Virus record (IMG/VR): IMGVR_UViG_3300049472_000168
Span: 1 to 64,000 of that record
Reading direction: 5' to 3' (one strand)
From: a virus
Taxonomy: Duplodnaviria; Caudoviricetes
DNA length: 64,000 nucleotides
A program made the translations under genes and the position numbers. Below the pieces are notes generated by a model, which saw nothing but the letters and a program-made list of their open reading frames with translations, was not told the DNA's origin and made no database searches. Positions 5,902-43,597 of the stretch are shown here, piece after piece (position 1 is the first letter of the stretch; every line of letters starts with the position of its first letter).

Positions 5902-6692
5902 ATAGCTCGATGCCTTAAAGTCTCACATCTTGAGCAAATAGTCAAGAGCCAGCCGCCTCTGTTTTCTAGGGACCCAGGATCCCCACAGTAATAGCAGGTT
6001 TTCGCAGACTCCCGTTCAGCAGCAGCGATCACTTCATCTACCTCTCTAGTGGCGTAATCAGAATAGAACCTAAGGGTTCCTAGTTTTTCTTTGACCTGGA
6101 TCGCCTTGATTCTGTTCAGGGCCGGATACTGCCGATTGATGGCCTCTAGCTTAAGACAGCAGTCATAGATCAAAGGGAACCACCCCAGAAGGGTAACTTC
6201 AAAACAGAAATCTTCTGAGATAACGGTAGGTGCCACAGATTTCAGGATTTGGGTGAACTTCTCCTGTCCCGGAGAATCAGGCTTCCACAGCCTTCTCTCG
6301 GCGTCTGTTCTATTGTCTAGGTCCGGTACGATGGCCTTAACCAGGGCTTCACTGAGTTCTACGGCTCCGCTGTATTCGTCAACTGGGGTCGCACAGTCTT
6401 GGCAGACCCAGCCAAACTCGTTTTCCTGCCATCCCGCAGCGATGGCGTCGGCTTCGTTGCCATCAAACTTCTTGTCGAGGTCAACTGTGGTTTTGGTCTT
6501 CTGGATCTCGAATCTGATCCCTTTGTAGGTTCCAGAGCTGACCCCGAGTTTCTTAATGGCGGCAAGTGCGTTTTGTAAACCTCTATGGATATTGACTAGC
6601 TTTTCCGGAATCTCATGGTGATCTGGAAAGATAACAACTTCGTAGTCCTCTTCAGAAGGAATCACACAACTGGTACATACGATATCACTCAT
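5898..6692 (-). CDS. Phage hypothetical with QVKEKxGxLRFY motif and CxxC pairs
   Basis: QVKEKLGTLRFY..TCYYCG..GW..TIC.RC, a pattern common in phage proteins. Confidence 0.6.
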   Translation of the reverse strand: MSDIVCTSCVIPSEEDYEVVIFPDHHEIPEKLVNIHRGLQNALAAIKKLGVSSGTYKGIRFEIQKTKTTVDLDKKFDGNEADAIAAGWQENEFGWVCQDCATPVDEYSGAVELSEALVKAIVPDLDNRTDAERRLWKPDSPGQEKFTQILKSVAPTVISEDFCFEVTLLGWFPLIYDCCLKLEAINRQYPALNRIKAIQVKEKLGTLRFYSDYATREVDEVIAAAERESAKTCYYCGDPGSLENRGGWLLTICSRCETLRHRAI

Positions 6693-6930
6693 TGGTTTCT
6701 TCGGCCTCCATATTGATTACCCATCTCTGTCCGTCGTGGTGCATCTCGAATTTCTGGAACCCGACGGGGCCGCAGTTCAGCAAGCCACTATACATCCCAT
6801 CTGTCATGACCTCCTGCAAGAACAGGAGCCGCCTCGAATTCATTTCGAGATAAGTACTAGGTATATCGTAAATCGTAGAAATATACCTAGTCACGGTCTC
6901 GAATTTGATGGTTTTAAGATTTCGAGTCAT
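6685..6930 (-). CDS. Hypothetical protein
   Basis: Packed ORF. Confidence 0.5.
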   Translation of the reverse strand: MTRNLKTIKFETVTRYISTIYDIPSTYLEMNSRRLLFLQEVMTDGMYSGLLNCGPVGFQKFEMHHDGQRWVINMEAEETNE

Positions 6931-7963
6931 TTAGAGCTTCTCCCAAGGCCTGCATCGCAGCAGAAGTAAGCTCCTGGGATTCTGCCATGTTGACCCTGTA
7001 GTAGCCGTCAACACCAGCGGAGGAGCCATCAACAAACAGGATTTTTGTCTTTTCTAAGGCGGTCCTGAACTTTTTGGAATGCTTCGGCTTGAACCAAGCA
7101 AACATGCCGCCGTCTCCACTAGGGACACCTGCCATATTAGTGACGTGGTCTCCGATAGTATTAATTAATGTCTTCCCGTTATTTGCGATCTGCTCATTGA
7201 TACAGTCAGTAGCTAGCTCGAATCTAACGGGTCCCCTCATGATGGTGTCGAGAAACTCTGAAAAATAGGTCTGGGAAAGAGTCGAGACCCCGGAGGTCGT
7301 GGTTTCGACGTATTCGGTGATGGCATCTGCGATATCGCTGTGGTCTGTGGAGATCCAGCCCAGTCGAATTCCGCTGAGACCGTAACGCTTCGATGCTGAA
7401 TCTACAACAACTTCGGGGTCATCGGCTTCATCTGGGGCCATATCTGCTCCCAGCCCTGCGTCAAAGATAGGAGAGTCGTAGACCGAGTCTCTAATAATAA
7501 AAGAGCCCTCGAAGTGATTTTGGGCGTCCTTGTTGTATCCTGTAGGATTATTAGGCCAGGTATCGATGATGACCTGGTAGTCATTGAGATCTGAGGTCCA
7601 GTTGAGTCCAGCATGGGCAGCTAGGGTAGGGAGACTGGGCCAGTACGGAACCATCGAAGTATAGACATCGGAATAGCTCAGCTTCAGGGCTGCCGCCATC
7701 GCGGCGATGAGGCCTTGTTTGGCCCCTGAAACCAAGACGACATGTTTCTGTGGTATATTGTGGAATTCCTTGATCCTAGAGATCAGATCTAAGTCGCCTC
7801 CAGATCTGGGATATCCTTGATCTGAATCCGGAATCATAAATTTGGGGTAGAACTGCTTCAGCCCGGCCTGTACCAGCTTTGGTTCACCTATGGCTAGATT
7901 GGTGAAGCCGTATGGAGTTGACCTAGCGATCAGGGCCATATCTACTGTTTTTGGCTTTTTCAT
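6914..7963 (-). CDS. PLP-dependent aminotransferase class I/II fold
   Basis: NLAIGEP, SGAKQGL, PNNPTG, DSVY, SASKRYGLSGIRLGW (PLP lysine). Confidence 0.9.
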   Translation of the reverse strand: MKKPKTVDMALIARSTPYGFTNLAIGEPKLVQAGLKQFYPKFMIPDSDQGYPRSGGDLDLISRIKEFHNIPQKHVVLVSGAKQGLIAAMAAALKLSYSDVYTSMVPYWPSLPTLAAHAGLNWTSDLNDYQVIIDTWPNNPTGYNKDAQNHFEGSFIIRDSVYDSPIFDAGLGADMAPDEADDPEVVVDSASKRYGLSGIRLGWISTDHSDIADAITEYVETTTSGVSTLSQTYFSEFLDTIMRGPVRFELATDCINEQIANNGKTLINTIGDHVTNMAGVPSGDGGMFAWFKPKHSKKFRTALEKTKILFVDGSSAGVDGYYRVNMAESQELTSAAMQALGEALNDSKS

Positions 7964-36291: not shown

Positions 36292-36311
36292 CGTTTCAAA
36301 CGATACCTAGC

Positions 36312-36593
36312 TCAGGCCTTGGTGTCAAGACCTTTTTGGAGGAGTCTTTCTTTTTCTTCAAACTCGGCAAAGAACGATTTCTTTCGGATCACAGCCGTCT
36401 CCGCTTCCTCACCGAGGTCAGATACCGCTTTGACGAAAACCTGGTCTAGCTTGTCCAGGGGATCAATTATTAATTTGACCTTCTCAAATACCTCTTCCTT
36501 CGTCGAGGCCTGAACCTCGAAAGCAGGAAGCTGACGACTGGACATCCAGCCGTTTGTTGTCGAGTTAATCTGAGCCTGAATCGTCCAGTACAT
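36312..36593 (-). CDS. Hypothetical protein
   Basis: First gene of the minus-strand block; TTGACT-16-TAAGGT upstream. Confidence 0.55.
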   Translation of the reverse strand: MYWTIQAQINSTTNGWMSSRQLPAFEVQASTKEEVFEKVKLIIDPLDKLDQVFVKAVSDLGEEAETAVIRKKSFFAEFEEKERLLQKGLDTKA

Positions 36594-36699
36594 GACTTAA
36601 CCTTACCTGAATTAAAAATTAAGTCAAGAAGAACCTTGAGAGGAAAGGACTCCGGGTTCTCTTCTTTTCTTTCCGGATTCTTTTCTTCTATTAGAAGGT

Positions 36700-36883
36700 G
36701 GACATAATGTCCGCTTTTGAGGACATAATGTCCGCTTTTGAGGACATAATGTCCTACCCCATAGGACATCTTGTCCGCTTTTGAGGACATCTTGTCCGCT
36801 GTATATCTGTTCAGTAGAGGACAAGATGTCCGCTTTTGGAACATCGAGTCAAGGATTGAAGAGGACATAATGTCCGCTTTTGA
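36700..36883. repeat. Iteron-like array, putative replication origin or operator
   Basis: 7 copies of palindromic GGACA-NNN-TGTCC, most followed by GCTTTTGA, at 36700, 36721, 36742, 36764, 36785, 36819, 36863; located at the strand switch. Confidence 0.8.
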
Positions 36884-36884
36884 T

Positions 36885-36914
36885 TTGACATCAGACGGCA
36901 TCCGGATGTAATGT
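36885..36914 (+). promoter_or_regulatory. sigma70-type promoter abutting the last repeat
   Basis: TTGACA-18-TAATGT. Confidence 0.5.
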
Positions 36915-37111
36915 TTCTGTCATGGTTGTTATCGTGATAGAGGTCTGCTTCGGCTGCAACCGAAGACGGTTCCGAATCAATACAAAATCCAAATGTCCTT
37001 GGTGCGGATTCCAGTGGTAAAAATCACAGAAGTCTGGGCTATGTGTATTGCTTGTGGAAAAGTATTTAACTGTATCTGCGACCGCAGCATACCTAAGAAG
37101 GTCATATCGGA

Positions 37112-37450
37112 ATGACGGCTCAAAAATGGTCCCCTTGGGGGGCTCCTCCTACTGAGGAATTCTTACAGGTACCTCATTTTTTGCCTCAAACCTTGCACAT
37201 CATGGGTTTCGGTCCAGCCGAAATCCTGGTAGTCTTTGCTATGGCTTCTGAGATCAGACCCGGAAAAAGTGAGGTCAAATCCTCCCAGAAACAATTGGCA
37301 AAATATGCAAATTGCACCTCTAGAACAGTACGAAGGGCTTTGACTAAGATGCAGACCCATGGTATGGTTACTAAAATCGGGGAATGCAATACCTATGACC
37401 TCAGGGACTTTTTCGATACCGTGTTAAAATTCAAGGAGACTCTAGATTGA
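37112..37450 (+). CDS. Winged-HTH DNA-binding protein (initiator-like)
   Basis: SQKQLAKYANCTSRTVRRALTKMQTHGMV. Confidence 0.75.
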   Translation: MTAQKWSPWGAPPTEEFLQVPHFLPQTLHIMGFGPAEILVVFAMASEIRPGKSEVKSSQKQLAKYANCTSRTVRRALTKMQTHGMVTKIGECNTYDLRDFFDTVLKFKETLD

Positions 37451-38487
37451 GTTTTGATGCCAAAGAAGCGTTTCAGGAGCTGGCGGATATCTGGCCTCTG
37501 AAAAGACGTAACAAAACCGTAGATTTTCAGATCTTCGAGTCCAGGGTTATGTCCCAGGAGGCATTTGAGAAGCTGCTCGAACGAGCAAAAATCGTTATCG
37601 AGGACGGTACGTCTCAGACATTGGCGATGTTTATCAGCTCGGAGACCAAGAAAGTATCCAAGAGTCCCGTTGCCTTGACCTCTCTGTATCCTACTGAACA
37701 GGATAGTCCTGAACTTCTCGAAGCCTTCGAGACCGTTTGGGCCCAATGGCCTCGCCATTTTTCGTGGCCAGAATCCAGGGAATCGGCTTTTTCGGGATTC
37801 CGTAGTTTTGTCAAGAAAAATGGTCTCTCCGGGGTTGTCGAGACCTGTAGCTTTTATGCTACAACGTTCAATGACCCGACATCAGGAATGATTCATCCCT
37901 ACCATCTTTCCAATTTCCTTGGAGACTCCTCGAAGTTTGCCGAATGGTCGGCCCGTGCTGTATTTGCACCGAGTCAGACTGATATCGAAGACTTCAATGC
38001 TGTCTGGGCCTGGTATCCGAGGGCAGGTGGTTCCGAAAAACAGAAGAAAGACGCCCTTCTTTTCTGGCTACGTCATGTCAAGCCGGAACAGAGATTTGAT
38101 TTCTTGGCTTCAGTGAAGTCCTACCACAGGGTCCTGAACGAGATCAAATATGCCAAGAATCTGATAGGATTCATCGGAGACTGGAAGACGTTTTTATCTT
38201 ACTCCAGTATTGCTGCGGATATCAGCAAAGGAATCCTGGAAATAGTTCCTGCCGAGGCCTGGAAGGGGCAGACTTTAATGAATCTGTCTTCTGGACTTAC
38301 CAATCAGGTCCTAGGACGGCTTCAATCTGGAACTACAAAAGGAAAGATCCAGGATACAATATCTGATATCTGTGCAGTCGTGGTCGAACAAAACAAAAAG
38401 CTGGGGTCAGACATAGTCTTGGACCCAGTCGAGGTCTACAATGCTGCATATCGACAGGCAGCGAAACCGCCTAAGACGGTAGCATGA
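37447..38487 (+). CDS. Replication initiator / replisome organizer-like protein
   Basis: Three repeats of F...W..(W/Y)P(R/L) modules typical of phage initiator C-termini; next to the repeat array. Confidence 0.5.
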   Translation: MSFDAKEAFQELADIWPLKRRNKTVDFQIFESRVMSQEAFEKLLERAKIVIEDGTSQTLAMFISSETKKVSKSPVALTSLYPTEQDSPELLEAFETVWAQWPRHFSWPESRESAFSGFRSFVKKNGLSGVVETCSFYATTFNDPTSGMIHPYHLSNFLGDSSKFAEWSARAVFAPSQTDIEDFNAVWAWYPRAGGSEKQKKDALLFWLRHVKPEQRFDFLASVKSYHRVLNEIKYAKNLIGFIGDWKTFLSYSSIAADISKGILEIVPAEAWKGQTLMNLSSGLTNQVLGRLQSGTTKGKIQDTISDICAVVVEQNKKLGSDIVLDPVEVYNAAYRQAAKPPKTVA

Positions 38488-38735
38488 AGTTTTCACAGGA
38501 TTGGATAGATGACTGCGTACGTTACTACGGCAAGGTCCTTGACGGAGATAAGGGGCATTGGTGTATGGATTGGGATGACCTCCCTATTGATGAGACATGT
38601 TCTGAATTCGATTGCTGTAATTGTGTTCTGCTGTCTCCGGAGTCAAAGGCTATTGTCGAAACTATGATCAGTAATCCTCCGGCTCCAACTGAAGCCTTGA
38701 TCGAGGCAGCCAGCCGTTTTAAGGAAACAAAATGA
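38484..38735 (+). CDS. Hypothetical protein
   Basis: ATGA coupling; HWC.DWD.L.ID..C.EF..C.C. Confidence 0.55.
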   Translation: MKFSQDWIDDCVRYYGKVLDGDKGHWCMDWDDLPIDETCSEFDCCNCVLLSPESKAIVETMISNPPAPTEALIEAASRFKETK

Positions 38736-38904
38736 ACCAAACGACGAGTAAATCTGGAGGAATAATTCCAGTAGTAGTACAGAGTCCAGACGGGAAATAT
38801 AGGTTCAGTTGCTTCCACTGCGGAACCGGATATACAATCGAGGCTCCAGACGAAGAACCTCAGAAGCCTGAGCCGAAAAAGCGTAAACGCACCAAGAAAA
38901 AGAA

Positions 38905-39156
38905 ATGAGTTTAGAATCTCTAGACAGAAGACTCTTCCTACGAGGACTTACCCTGCTGAGTTCGGGGCTTGTCGTCCCTAGACCTTTCTTTAGTGTACCT
39001 CAGGTTCCGAAGACTGATGCAATGATATTTTTGGATTTGAAAGAAGCACTCATAGCAGGGGGTTGGATAAGTCGAGGTCAGATAGAGTATTTAGATCTCA
39101 GTAAAATGAGAAGAACAGTATTTGATTGCAGTGCCTTTGTTCTACTTTCTAAATGA
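38905..39156 (+). CDS. Hypothetical with Tat-like twin-arginine N-terminus
   Basis: LDRRLFLRGL followed by a short hydrophobic stretch. Confidence 0.45.
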   Translation: MSLESLDRRLFLRGLTLLSSGLVVPRPFFSVPQVPKTDAMIFLDLKEALIAGGWISRGQIEYLDLSKMRRTVFDCSAFVLLSK

Positions 39157-40655: not shown

Positions 40656-41437
40656 TGATAGTAATTTTGTGCGGACAGGCCGGTTCAGGAAAGGATACTG
40701 TAGCCTCTATTTTGGCTAATAAAATAAATGGTGTCGCAATAGGTCAAGCAGATCCTCTGAAGTGGATTGCGGGGGACCTGTTCCCGTTTAATGATCAACA
40801 GCTATTCGGTCCTTCTGAGTGTAGGAATTTTGTTGACCCCGATCTAAAGGGGTTTGACTGTCTCAGCAAAAGGAAAGACGAAGCTAGATCTTGGTGTAAG
40901 AAGTTCTTTCCTGATCGTCTTGAAGAGGCCTGGGGAGGTCTCCAGGTCTGGAATCGTCAGATAATTGCACTATCTGAGAAGAAGAACGGGATCAGCCCCA
41001 GAATGGTTCTTCAGACACTAGGTACCGAATGGGGAAGAGCCCTTGATCCAGACGTATGGATACGGTTTGCTTGCGAACAAGCAACTCGTCTTACCTCCCC
41101 GGGGTTTCTTTACAGCCGGGAAGATGGAATGTGTGTGGTTCCGGAATTTGAAGGATTCAATATAGCCATCATTACAGATGGTAGATTCCGAAATGAAATA
41201 CAGGAAGTCAAATCCAGGGGCGGGATCGCAATTAGGGTGACGAGACAAGACCGAACCTTATCTGTTGCTGCCGATCTAGGCGGGCTCAAAGGACACGATT
41301 CAGAAGAGGACTTGAATCAAGTTGAGGATAGTTACTTTGATTCTGTTGTGATCAATAATTCGACAAAGCAACATCTCTACGAGGCCTCGATTGAGGCCTA
41401 TAACAGTGCGATGGGAAATAAATATAAATTAACATGA
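40655..41437 (+). CDS. Deoxynucleoside monophosphate kinase
   Basis: GQAGSGKDT, ADPLK, PRMVLQTLGTEWGR, ITDGRFRNE, H.SE. Confidence 0.9.
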   Translation: MIVILCGQAGSGKDTVASILANKINGVAIGQADPLKWIAGDLFPFNDQQLFGPSECRNFVDPDLKGFDCLSKRKDEARSWCKKFFPDRLEEAWGGLQVWNRQIIALSEKKNGISPRMVLQTLGTEWGRALDPDVWIRFACEQATRLTSPGFLYSREDGMCVVPEFEGFNIAIITDGRFRNEIQEVKSRGGIAIRVTRQDRTLSVAADLGGLKGHDSEEDLNQVEDSYFDSVVINNSTKQHLYEASIEAYNSAMGNKYKLT

Positions 41438-42495
41438 ATCAGCAAGACCTAGACTCCAATAGACACTTCAGACTCTTTGCGACATCCGTTGAAAGAGCGA
41501 TTGCAAAATACGGATATCTCCAGGAAACAGACATCACTGAGATGCAGAAGGCCCAGGTCGAAAAGCTTGTTGGTCTCGAATCAGAATGGAGGGATGCCTT
41601 AGTCAAAAGTGACAGAGGACAAGATATCTATGAGGCCTTTGTTTCTCATATCCTGGACGAGAGGAGAAATATCTTAGCCGCTAGGCCATTTTTCAGAGAG
41701 CGTCAAAAGATTTTTACGGTCTCCATCAGCCCCGCACTGAAGGCCAGGAATTGGGAGGAGATCCAAAAATTTCACGTCAACTGGACTTTCATCAGATTTG
41801 CGTCAAAACGAAACCTCGACAAGAAATCTGAGGTCTACAGATTGACCAAGGAAATCGAGAAGGCCAGGATGGAGTTGGTAGAGATGAATCTACCCCTAGC
41901 AATTTCGAGGTCAAGGATCTTCTGGTCCAGAACACCAAAATCTCACCTCACCTTCATGGACTTTGTATCCATTGCCACAGAGGGTCTCCTGGCAGCCGTG
42001 GATAAATTTGTTTTACCCTATTCAGAAGTCTTCAGGTCGGTTGCTATTGGTAGAATGGTCGGGAACTTTATCGAATCCTACTCTGATACCATGCTCCATT
42101 TTTACCCCAACGACCGTAGGAAGATTTACAGGGCCAATAAGTATATGTCGAAGAGGCCTACTGGAGATTACCAGACCTCCGAACTGGTCGATGTCGTCAA
42201 CAAAGGGGCAAAACTCCGACAACAGACCTCAGATCTCGAAATCAAAGAACTCGTCGCCGCCATTTCTATTTTGCCGTTCGACCTCAAGCCAGACACCGGG
42301 ATGTCAGATAGTCATGGCAACGATATCCAGGAAATCGGAGGTAAGATAGAAGCCAGTCCAGATTCGAGGCCAGATGTCAGAGCAGAAAAGACAGAGGCCT
42401 CCAGAATCGTTTTTGAGGCAATCAAAGATCTTCCTTTAATTGACCAAAAACTTCTGAGGCTGAAGGGGGTTGACATCAATGCTATGGCGTGGTAA
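41434..42495 (+). CDS. Phage sigma70-family sigma factor
   Basis: Region 2-like ARMELVEMNLPLAIS..DFVSIATEGLLAAVDKF; truncated region 4 (LPLIDQKLLRLKG). Confidence 0.8.
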   Translation: MNQQDLDSNRHFRLFATSVERAIAKYGYLQETDITEMQKAQVEKLVGLESEWRDALVKSDRGQDIYEAFVSHILDERRNILAARPFFRERQKIFTVSISPALKARNWEEIQKFHVNWTFIRFASKRNLDKKSEVYRLTKEIEKARMELVEMNLPLAISRSRIFWSRTPKSHLTFMDFVSIATEGLLAAVDKFVLPYSEVFRSVAIGRMVGNFIESYSDTMLHFYPNDRRKIYRANKYMSKRPTGDYQTSELVDVVNKGAKLRQQTSDLEIKELVAAISILPFDLKPDTGMSDSHGNDIQEIGGKIEASPDSRPDVRAEKTEASRIVFEAIKDLPLIDQKLLRLKGVDINAMAW

Positions 42496-42498: not shown

Positions 42499-42516
42499 CC
42501 TACATTGGAGGATTTT

Positions 42517-42855
42517 ATGTTTAGAACTAGTCAGAACACTGTGGCGTGTAGGCCGTTCCCGGAGAAAATTCAGAAAACTGAGAAGAAGACTGGGTTGGCG
42601 TTTGGCAATTTGACCACAGCACTAGTAGAACTCGAAGTGGTTGCGGAGTGTTACGGACCTACAGGTCTTTCCTCTAACTTAAGAGTGAATGATCACGTAT
42701 TTGTCCGCCCCGACCGTTCGATTCAGCCCTGGGCCAAAGAAATCTGTAAAGCTCCGGGGATAGAGGGGGATTTTATCTTGGTCCCCATCAATGAGGTTCT
42801 GCTACATAGAAGCAGAGAGGAATTGCCGGAATTGCGAAAGGCGGAGGAAAAATAA
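42517..42855 (+). CDS. GroES-like co-chaperonin
   Basis: Pattern FRT..NTV...P..KKTGL..EVVA..LRVNDHV..I.G.FILV...EVL parallels GroES; GGAGG RBS. Confidence 0.55.
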   Translation: MFRTSQNTVACRPFPEKIQKTEKKTGLAFGNLTTALVELEVVAECYGPTGLSSNLRVNDHVFVRPDRSIQPWAKEICKAPGIEGDFILVPINEVLLHRSREELPELRKAEEK

Positions 42856-42856
42856 A

Positions 42857-43597
42857 ATGGGATACACGACGGAATTTGAGGGAGCCTTCAGGGTCTCTCC
42901 AGCGTTTAGAGAGGTAGATGCGATATATCTACAAAGATTTTGTGAAACACGTCGAATGACGTGGAATGTGGACAAAATCTTTAATCGACTCGATTCAATT
43001 CGCGAGGCCGTATTGCTCCCAATTGGGGGGGATGGGGAATATTTTACCGGTGCTGTAGGATTCGCTGGTCAAGAAGACGGACCATGTGTACTAGACTTCA
43101 ATAGACCTCCAGGTTCTCAGCCTGGCCTTTGGTGTCATTGGGTACCGACGAAAGATAGGAAAGGTCTCGAATGGGACGGAGGAGAAAAATTCTATCATTA
43201 CGTCGAATGGCTTGAATATTTGATCGAACATTTTCTTACTCCGTGGGGTTATGTCGTTTCGGGTACCGTGAAGTGGAGTGGAGAGGAAGAAGAGGACAAC
43301 GGAACAATTTTCGTAGAAAATAATGTAGTGAAAACGACAACGGAAGAAGATGTCCCTGTTGTTGTCAAACCATATGAGCGTACGATTCGTCCTGAGTTCA
43401 ATTATCATCAACTCAACCAAGAAGGGGTAAGAAAGGCGAAGACGGTTTCGATTCTTTTTTCTAATCTTCTCGATGAACTCGAAGGCATTTGTGGTTCTGG
43501 CAGAGAAATTGCAATCGTCCGGACAAAACTGGAGGAGGCCTCGTTCTTTGCGAAAAAAGCTGTAGCTGTCAATCCAGATAACCAGCAACTCAAATGA
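42857..43597 (+). CDS. Two-domain protein: unknown N-domain + Acb2/Tad1-like hairpin domain
   Basis: C-terminal FNYH..LCGSGREIAIVRTKLEEASFFAKKAVA-type pattern (ICGSGRE in this protein); GGAGG RBS. Confidence 0.65.
   Translation: MGYTTEFEGAFRVSPAFREVDAIYLQRFCETRRMTWNVDKIFNRLDSIREAVLLPIGGDGEYFTGAVGFAGQEDGPCVLDFNRPPGSQPGLWCHWVPTKDRKGLEWDGGEKFYHYVEWLEYLIEHFLTPWGYVVSGTVKWSGEEEEDNGTIFVENNVVKTTTEEDVPVVVKPYERTIRPEFNYHQLNQEGVRKAKTVSILFSNLLDELEGICGSGREIAIVRTKLEEASFFAKKAVAVNPDNQQLK

Follow-up and report, generated by a model that had tools for sequence, protein, structure and literature searches.

A two-domain gene in a metagenomic phage

The window analyzed here is a 64,000-nucleotide stretch of DNA, positions 1 to 64,000 of a 138,265-bp IMG/VR virus record from a metagenome (IMGVR_UViG_3300049472_000168; Caudoviricetes) that is estimated to be 84% complete. 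Our subject is a single gene at positions 42857 to 43597, in which two normally separate genes appear to have been joined in frame into one phage gene: the C-terminal part of its product is a helical hairpin of the Acb2 family of sponges, and the N-terminal part, hereafter the N-module, belongs to a large uncharacterized family. The known Acb2 sponges are small and have a single domain, and a survey of 4,204 Acb2 homologues does not discuss fused forms (its text was searched for "fused" and "additional domain"). The protein consists of the N-module (residues 1 to 162), a linker of ~14 residues, and then one whole hairpin protein. Confidence in the structural models is given as the predicted local distance difference test (pLDDT). 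The features are as follows.

42857..43597, + strand: fusion gene, one unbroken frame of 246 codons plus stop (ATG at 42857, stop at 43595-43597)
42843..42847, + strand: Shine-Dalgarno (SD) sequence GGAGG, 9 nt before the start codon, read from the sequence
42857..43342, + strand: N-module (residues 1-162), alpha/beta fold, member of a large family related to DUF6205
43343..43384, + strand: linker, residues 163-176, predicted flexible, ~14 residues, pLDDT <50 at residues 168-173
43385..43594, + strand: Acb2_43-type hairpin domain, complete, residues 177-246 (PF24729, 9ptq, standalone relatives, phrog_1454)
43397..43414, + strand: beta1-equivalent FNYHQL, residues 181-186, from the alignment with the Acb2_43 pocket strand and its contact list
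43418..43570, + strand: two long antiparallel helices, alpha1 (residues 188-212) and alpha2 (residues 216-238), assigned by DSSP on the model, pLDDT 90-97

The original prediction for this DNA had placed an open reading frame (ORF) at 42857-43597 with its start at 42857, and the coordinates, the SD site, and the invariant MGY at the N terminus of the family bear this out. The public gene call for the same ORF (P0002, 213 amino acids) begins at Met34 (42956), so that its N-module lacks the opening beta-strand and helix; because the family's N-terminal MGY is invariant and an SD site is present, 42857 and not Met34 is taken as the true start. The ATG lies 1 nt past the TAA of an upstream 116-amino-acid ORF, and at the other end the sequence ATGA (43594-43597) overlaps the stop of the fusion gene with the start of a downstream gene for a calcineurin-like/SbcD-like phosphoesterase.

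At the junction, standalone relatives of the hairpin mostly start with M-(I/A)-R-P-E-F, and the window protein reads ...YERT-IRPEF... at the same point, so that the ACG codon of Thr176 (43382-43384) occupies the position of the relatives' ATG or GTG start. No in-frame start codon is left at the junction, and the hairpin is therefore most likely produced only within the fusion. The remaining two frames across the linker are closed by many stops. The N-module and hairpin halves are alike in GC content (0.43-0.46) and in GC content at third codon positions (GC3, ~0.40), and in codon usage both look like the rest of the phage; together with the closed frames, this makes a chimeric join or a single insertion or deletion unlikely. 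The SD site, the tight operon packing at both ends, the ACG at the junction, the matching GC and GC3, and the codon usage typical of this phage thus support a real gene.

The alternative is that a pair of neighboring genes became one, whether through a mistake in sequencing or assembly or through very recent loss of a stop codon, and that the product is non-functional. In its favor, the fusion is a single sequence from a metagenome assembly, the one run that contains it is probably where it came from, and the junction resembles a run-on, with a tail of normal length past the N-module followed by a whole hairpin protein. Set against this are the ACG at the relatives' start, the 246 codons with no in-frame stop, the closure of the other frames across the linker (so that a single insertion or deletion would not suffice), the shared composition and codon usage of the two halves, each of which sits tightly against its flanking neighbor in the operon, and the full intactness of both domains. 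We therefore regard an artifact or recent accident as very improbable.

The C-terminal Acb2 hairpin

Residues 183 to 237 of the window protein match the Pfam model of the Acb2/Tad1 hairpin, PF24729, at 37.5 bits (cut-off, 27; E value, 2.8e-9; profile positions 2-57 of 58), and in a six-frame search the same model scores 40.6 bits at the hairpin. The sole significant sequence match of the protein in the Protein Data Bank (PDB), found with phmmer, is 9ptq, "Acb2 homolog 43" (E = 6e-6), referred to below as Acb2_43. A profile built from the hairpin and its 20 closest relatives finds 9ptq at E = 2.6e-13 and T4 Vs.4/Acb2 only at E = 0.13. No Tad1 chain in the PDB was matched at E<=10, either with the window protein or with the hairpin-clade profile.

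The AlphaFold model of the full-length protein (mean pLDDT, 85.9; predicted template modeling score [pTM], 0.64) superposes on 9ptq with a target-normalized template modeling (TM) score of 0.80, a Z score of 7.8, and a root mean square deviation of 1.9 A over 63 aligned residues at 35% identity; one of the comparisons put the deviation at 2.1 A. Matches to the other solved members are T4 Vs.4 (7uq2; Z, 6.3), Acb2 of PaMx33 (8h2x; Z, 5.5), and CbTad1 (Z, 4.1-4.8; 7uav, 4.8). Helix alpha2 holds the family motif T-K-L-x-E-A-x-x-x-A as VRTKLEEASFFAKKA, which aligns with FKTKLEEAMFFATKA of 9ptq and AKTKLKEASMWACRA of T4 Vs.4. The 20 standalone relatives (69-89 amino acids) align over their full length with residues 177 to 246 at 44 to 68% identity, most of them at 51 to 68% and one at 44%. 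Fifteen columns are invariant across the hairpin and these relatives and so, by construction, are all present here, TKLEEASFF and KK among them. A tblastn search of cultured phages with the hairpin clade gave 0 matches at 1e-3.

Collectively, these findings make it secure that the C-terminal ~70 residues are a genuine Acb2-family hairpin of the Acb2_43 type, in both family and fold. The original prediction had assigned the C-terminal ~65 amino acids to an "Acb2/Tad1-like" hairpin and had proposed profile and structure comparisons with both families. The Acb2 half of this stands, with a profile score above the Pfam threshold (37.5 versus 27 bits) and the superposition on 9ptq, and can be narrowed to the Acb2_43 type. 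The Tad1 half does not hold for the sequence, and the structural likeness to Tad1 (Z, 4.1-4.8) reflects only the shared hairpin; an assignment of the hairpin as Tad1 was rejected on these grounds.

The hairpin shares with Acb2_43 a beta1-alpha1-alpha2 layout over the whole standalone length, the pattern F-x-x-H-x-(L/V)-N-x-x-G at beta1, and TKLEEA-FFA-KA in alpha2, and both are phage-encoded. It differs in being the C-terminal third of a 246-amino-acid protein, with a 162-residue domain ahead of beta1. The canonical Acb2 proteins (PaMx33, 8h2x/8h2j; T4 Vs.4, 7uq2) have PF24729, the helical hairpin, and the TKL-EA motif in common with it; however, they are longer (86-94 amino acids), lack the beta1 pocket strand, and give a much weaker sequence match. 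Canonical Acb2 proteins are sponges for the signals cyclic GMP-AMP (cGAMP) and cyclic triadenylate (cA3) of the cyclic oligonucleotide-based antiphage signaling system (CBASS), and Y11 of PaMx33 Acb2 stacks on cGAMP.

Members of the hairpin clade with N-terminal extensions exist naturally (P0285, P0289, P0290, and P0291), the N-terminal part of P0291 being Cys-rich/coiled-coil. In P0298 (L120:5929-6852, on a 104-kb IMG/VR contig), a PF24729 hairpin (40.6 bits) is followed by an in-frame extension of ~218 residues with no Pfam match, so the clade occasionally takes on C-terminal cargo too; P0292 likewise has a C-terminal tail.

The N-module and its family

The N-module modeled alone with AlphaFold2 reached a pLDDT of 94.7 and a pTM of 0.90. 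Compared with the pTM of 0.64 for the full-length protein and the low pLDDT of the linker, this indicates that the two domains are independent. Invariant or nearly invariant positions are found in the N-terminal half (M1, G2, Y3, T5, F7, G9, R32, R33, R36, D46, and R49), in the middle (N82, P85, Q88, P89, L91, W92, C93, and W95), and in the C-terminal part (W106, E110, K111, F112, Y113, Y115, W118, Y121, G136, G142, and D147). The motifs that had been picked out from the sequence alone (MGYTT.F.G, PGLWC.W, and WDGGEKFY.Y.EWL.YLI) are therein confirmed as nearly invariant columns of a large family. The same prediction had set this part apart as a domain of no assignable function, and this, too, still holds: when the window protein was compared with the Pfam, NCBIfam, and PADLOC models, the N-module was without any match, and a convincing solved relative was found neither with Foldseek against the PDB (best E, 0.55) nor in the VIA wide search (best Z, 3.9, where chance-level best matches typically reach Z 7-8).

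Three candidate assignments were dropped. Anbu/proteasome beta subunits, PP2C, and ribosomal proteins recurred among the structural matches at chance level (Z, 2.4-3.9). An Ntn-hydrolase-like reading of the invariant MGYTT start failed for want of a Gly-Thr processing site and of any significant match in fold. Finally, the YubB/Api92 ferredoxin-like domain DUF1281_C (PF18406) had been suggested by weak Foldseek/BFVD rows (E, 0.08-1), an Atlas score of 0.77, and its presence as a gene neighbor in four viral lineages; it gave no hidden Markov model (HMM) match, and hhalign against the neighboring DUF1281_C proteins returned 0.3% probability.

A word-index search found 953 homologues of the N-module, and an exhaustive one returned 2,423 cluster representatives, with E<=1e-30 for 320; identity within the family is typically 45 to 58%. 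The N-module corresponds to phrog_38666 (E = 7e-18), a PHROGs entry of unknown function, and in a six-frame search of the record its HMM matches 42857-43348 at 247.7 bits. The window protein does not match DUF6205 (PF19708) even at E<=10; 19 of 78 N-module relatives match it weakly (E<=1; best E, 4e-6), and P0070 alone reaches its cut-off (27.6 versus 27.3 bits, over profile positions 1-109 of 141). Because of these weak matches, the family is placed as a distant sister of the uncharacterized DUF6205 and not as a member of it. Both have the N-terminal MGY... in common; the N-module differs by an additional conserved insert of ~70 residues (TRRM.R ... QPGLWC.W). A literature search returned no paper naming DUF6205. 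On a contig of a Pirellulales metagenome-assembled genome (MAG; L017), a full N-module gene (6001-6507) is followed by a divergent 164-amino-acid paralogue (6580-7074; MGYSTYFSG...) that lacks this insert and looks like a DUF6205-sized core.

Among viruses, the N-module is present on 219 IMG/VR contigs, many of 100 to 600 kb, and in one giant-virus MAG; its Atlas clusters are 67 to 87% viral, and a Tupanvirus protein is a structural match (E = 3e-7). It is essentially absent from 50,697 GenBank phage records, where tblastn gave no match at 1e-5; at E<=1 the remote matches are a faecal phage contig (27.5% identity) and Caulobacter jumbo phages (E = 0.8). In cells, it occurs in ~230 bacterial and archaeal species genomes, foremost those of filamentous cyanobacteria, including complete Calothrix genomes. 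The cyanobacterial form (Microcoleus, Coleofasciculus, Calothrix, and Leptolyngbya) is a chromosomal gene for a protein of 244 to 257 amino acids, annotated as "hypothetical protein," with its own conserved C-terminal tail of ~85 amino acids. In ~30 Oscillatoriales genomes this gene is syntenic with VTT/DedA, STAS, and Uma2 genes, and there are ~40 further cyanobacterial loci besides L029, L084, and L035; these neighbors, together with an aldolase, look like plain synteny among close relatives. None of the neighbors of the viral genes recurs in more than 8 of 53 lineages (GP88, DUF1281_C, and bPH_2), and no pathway emerges from them. A DUF1281_C gene (start, MPNWC.N) lies ~0.6 to 2 kb downstream of the N-module gene on some jumbo-phage contigs (17 viral loci in 4 lineages; e.g., L147:7091-7867), and a GP88-family gene recurs nearby in 7 lineages.

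Domain partners were surveyed in 270 family proteins and in the best 150 of the 2,423 cluster representatives. Most of the family proteins (157/270) are standalone, and 99 (~37%) carry a C-terminal tail of >=40 amino acids; these 99 tails sort into 91 unrelated clusters. Recognizable partners, found once each among the 150 representatives, include TIR_2, Clp_N, WGR, BRCT, HTH_8, Imm5-like, DUF7352, and MutS_I. Together with the chromosomal copies, so many different partners argue that the N-module is general-purpose rather than dedicated to anti-defense.

The fusions to TIR_2 (E = 3e-25) are encoded on cellular or metagenomic contigs (L083:6001-6957, from an Acidobacteriota MAG, and P0204, which adjoins an IS110 transposase). 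These proteins could have the sensor-effector arrangement of a defense protein; their context is short, and nothing could be learned from the genes around the TIR- and WGR-fused relatives. In a 931-amino-acid relative (P0269), Imm5-like and phage L5 gp82-like regions precede an N-module at the C terminus (residues 750-907), an arrangement resembling a phage "polyvalent" protein. A genuine tandem duplication of the N-module is seen in just one of the 270 proteins, P0122 (401 amino acids).

The fused state and its interpretation

Among the 270 family proteins and the top 150 representatives, only the window protein has an Acb2 hairpin on an N-module. In line with this, a search of 5.8 billion proteins for the hairpin inside proteins of 135 to 431 amino acids brought up, besides the fusion protein itself, just two extended forms that are unrelated. 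No N-module was found within 6 kb of the hairpin at 27 viral hairpin loci, and this hairpin was not found within 6 kb of the N-module at any of 160 viral or cellular N-module loci. Neither module lies nearby in the 11 distant phages that were reached through the downstream phosphoesterase (33-40% identity), and the ancestral two-gene state was therefore not recovered. With the general Pfam model, a separate hairpin gene was detected in 3 of 46 N-module-bearing viral records, 6.5 to 7.8 kb from the N-module.

G042:103206-103382, same strand as the N-module: separate Acb2/Tad1-type hairpin gene
G044:20987-21163, same strand as the N-module: separate Acb2/Tad1-type hairpin gene
G038:6467-6637, same strand as the N-module: separate Acb2/Tad1-type hairpin gene (open frames at the three sites, 121-123 amino acids)

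Two of these three records are sister phages with identical spacing, and no more than a hint of a common accessory region can be drawn from the co-occurrence. The window phage's own record holds a single copy of each module, and neither Tad2 nor Sequestin was found in it. The fusion to Acb2 is thus a singleton and says little on the function of the N-module.

We lean, somewhat beyond even chances, toward a real in-frame fusion gene whose hairpin is a working sponge with the N-module tethered at its beta1 strand. The C-terminal 70 residues would then act as a minimal but complete sponge of the Acb2 family, Acb2_43 type, and, judging only from their 35% identity to Acb2_43, would probably assemble into an Acb2-type hexamer. 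By analogy with its relatives, the hexamer would sequester a nucleotide-derived host immune signal, thereby blunting a signaling defense. The flexible linker of ~14 residues would tether the N-module and enter the hairpin at the beta1 strand; because beta1 of Acb2_43 helps to form the ligand pocket there, assembly would put the N-modules near the prism vertices. As a working guess, the N-module might add another binding function, directed at a host protein or a small molecule.

Tad1 (CbTad1, 7uav/8kbe) is the nearest architectural precedent for building new function at the N terminus of this scaffold, since there, too, an add-on precedes the hairpin (chain residues ~53-124 aligned). The Tad1 add-on, however, is a beta-sheet of ~50 residues that is integrated with the hairpin and forms the pocket for glyco-cyclic ADP-ribose (gcADPR), whereas here it is an unrelated, autonomous domain of 162 residues on a flexible linker.

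The ligand can be approached through the pocket of Acb2_43. Acb2_43 is a hexamer in which an additional N-terminal strand, beta1, helps to build three pockets; it binds 3' cyclic ADP-ribose (3'cADPR) and inhibits type I Thoeris, and CBASS is not inhibited. Its ligand contacts are T4, H5, L6, and V7 of beta1 together with K19 and K55 (bioRxiv 10.1101/2025.08.24.671296). In the alignment to 9ptq, two of the six contacts are kept in the window protein, H184 corresponding to H5 and K234 to the phosphate-binding K55. The best single guess for the ligand, from the nearest characterized relative, would be a cyclic ADP-ribose (cADPR) isomer made by a TIR protein, but the pocket is conserved only in part.

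Several points weigh against a working sponge in this protein. The other four contacts are changed (T4 to Y183, L6 to Q185, V7 to L186, and K19 to S198), and a Lys at the K19 position is absent throughout the hairpin clade; 3'cADPR binding therefore cannot be assumed, and the ligand may differ from that of Acb2_43. L6 and V7 of Acb2_43 contact the ligand partly through the backbone, so substitutions at these two positions do not settle the ligand question. This particular hairpin clade has no experimentally tested member. In addition, the added domain joins the pocket-forming beta1 strand directly and could hinder ligand access or assembly. The junction is without independent sequencing support, the only public run being probably the source sample, a freshwater sediment metagenome. 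Finally, a fusion seen in one sequence only gives no evidence of selection maintaining the fused state.

The changed contacts bear also on a different view of the hairpin, in which it serves mainly to oligomerize the N-module, the N-module is the working part, and sponge activity is lost or secondary. In agreement with this, ~37% of the sampled family members have C-terminal tails of 40 to 100 amino acids, several of which look helical, suggesting that the module often needs an appended oligomerizing or targeting piece, of which the Acb2 hairpin would be one more. The retained residues point the other way: every column that is invariant in the standalone proteins is kept, including the surface/pocket residues H184 and K233/K234 and so beyond the helix-packing positions, and the identity of 51 to 68% to most standalone proteins (one, 44%) shows no sign of relaxed constraint. 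A hairpin that serves mainly as a scaffold is, in our judgment, unlikely.

In the fused protein, the N-module may instead have an anti-defense activity of its own, being a new sponge or a domain that binds or degrades a signal, so that the protein neutralizes two immune signals in the manner of Tad2-Acb4 fusions. A precedent exists for recognizing such domains by fusion. Tad2-Acb4, Tad2-Sequestin, and Sequestin-Acb4 fusions recur 60 to 91 times, their partners have been shown to be sponges, and it was the fusions to Tad2/Acb4 that exposed Sequestin; the study queried Tad2 and Acb4 only, and not Acb2 (Tal et al., bioRxiv 10.1101/2025.07.12.664507). The window protein is like these in that one polypeptide holds a known sponge domain and, across a linker, another small phage domain, and unlike them in being unique so far and in having an uncharacterized partner that is present in cellular genomes too.

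Apart from the precedents, a dual function is favored by the strong conservation of the N-module (50-58% identity across lineages) and by how common it is among phages (219 IMG/VR contigs, including many jumbo ones), by its near-invariant cluster of R32, R33, R36, R49, K111, W92, W95, W106, Y113, and Y115, and by the relatives fused to TIR, WGR, and BRCT. Clusters of Arg, Lys, and aromatic residues are the chemistry used by nucleotide pockets, and TIR, WGR, and BRCT domains are linked to NAD/ADP-ribose biology. The same-strand hairpin gene in 3 of the 46 N-module phages points in the same direction, although two of the three cases are sister phages. In contrast to the 60 to 91 fusions behind the published precedent, the present fusion stands alone; the spread of 99 tails over 91 clusters shows that the module pairs with many partners; the syntenic chromosomal gene of filamentous cyanobacteria does not suggest a dedicated counter-defense role; and the module has no structural relative among the solved sponges (best Z, 3.9) and no PADLOC match. 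A dual-function protein is accordingly rather unlikely in our view, though worth bearing in mind. The original prediction had proposed the N-terminal domain as an anti-defense candidate by virtue of the fusion, and this is weakly supported: the published precedent speaks for it, while the singleton state, the ~90 unrelated tails, the chromosomal copies, and the lack of recurrent adjacency speak against it. Extended to the whole family, the idea would make the N-module an immune-signal-binding domain, a sponge or decoy in jumbo phages and giant viruses and a sensor in cells (for example, in the TIR-fused proteins), which we consider quite unlikely. If such signal binding were true, the lone Acb2 fusion would be the first clue to the family's function, as the Tad2/Acb4 fusions were for Sequestin.

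With the hairpin as a working sponge, as we prefer, the sponge half is in itself ordinary, and the interest lies in what it carries. A natural Acb2 bearing a large foreign domain at its pocket strand raises the questions of whether the scaffold tolerates cargo and whether the cargo is a second counter-defense activity. The N-module is one of the larger uncharacterized families common to jumbo phages, a giant virus, and cyanobacteria, with a confident fold that lacks a solved relative; thousands of genes would gain an annotation once a function were found, and the fusion provides a first, thin functional lead.

The + strand row around the gene reads DEAD/ResIII helicase, deoxynucleoside monophosphate (dNMP) kinase, a weakly sigma-like protein, an unassigned gene, the fusion gene, the phosphoesterase, two further unassigned genes, and the large terminase. 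Standalone hairpin genes, like the fusion gene, sit among genes for replication and nucleotide metabolism, a common setting that favors the preferred reading. The 116-amino-acid ORF just before the fusion gene (42505-42855) has zero Pfam or PHROGs matches, and the 353-amino-acid protein upstream of it (41434-42495) resembles RNA polymerase sigma factors only weakly in PHROGs (E = 3.5e-4). Farther upstream, the long ORFs lie on the - strand as far as ~36.3 kb and on the + strand beyond ~37.4 kb. Both the GC and the AT skew flip sign at window positions ~36300-39150, and the stretch looks like a divergent junction between phage gene modules.

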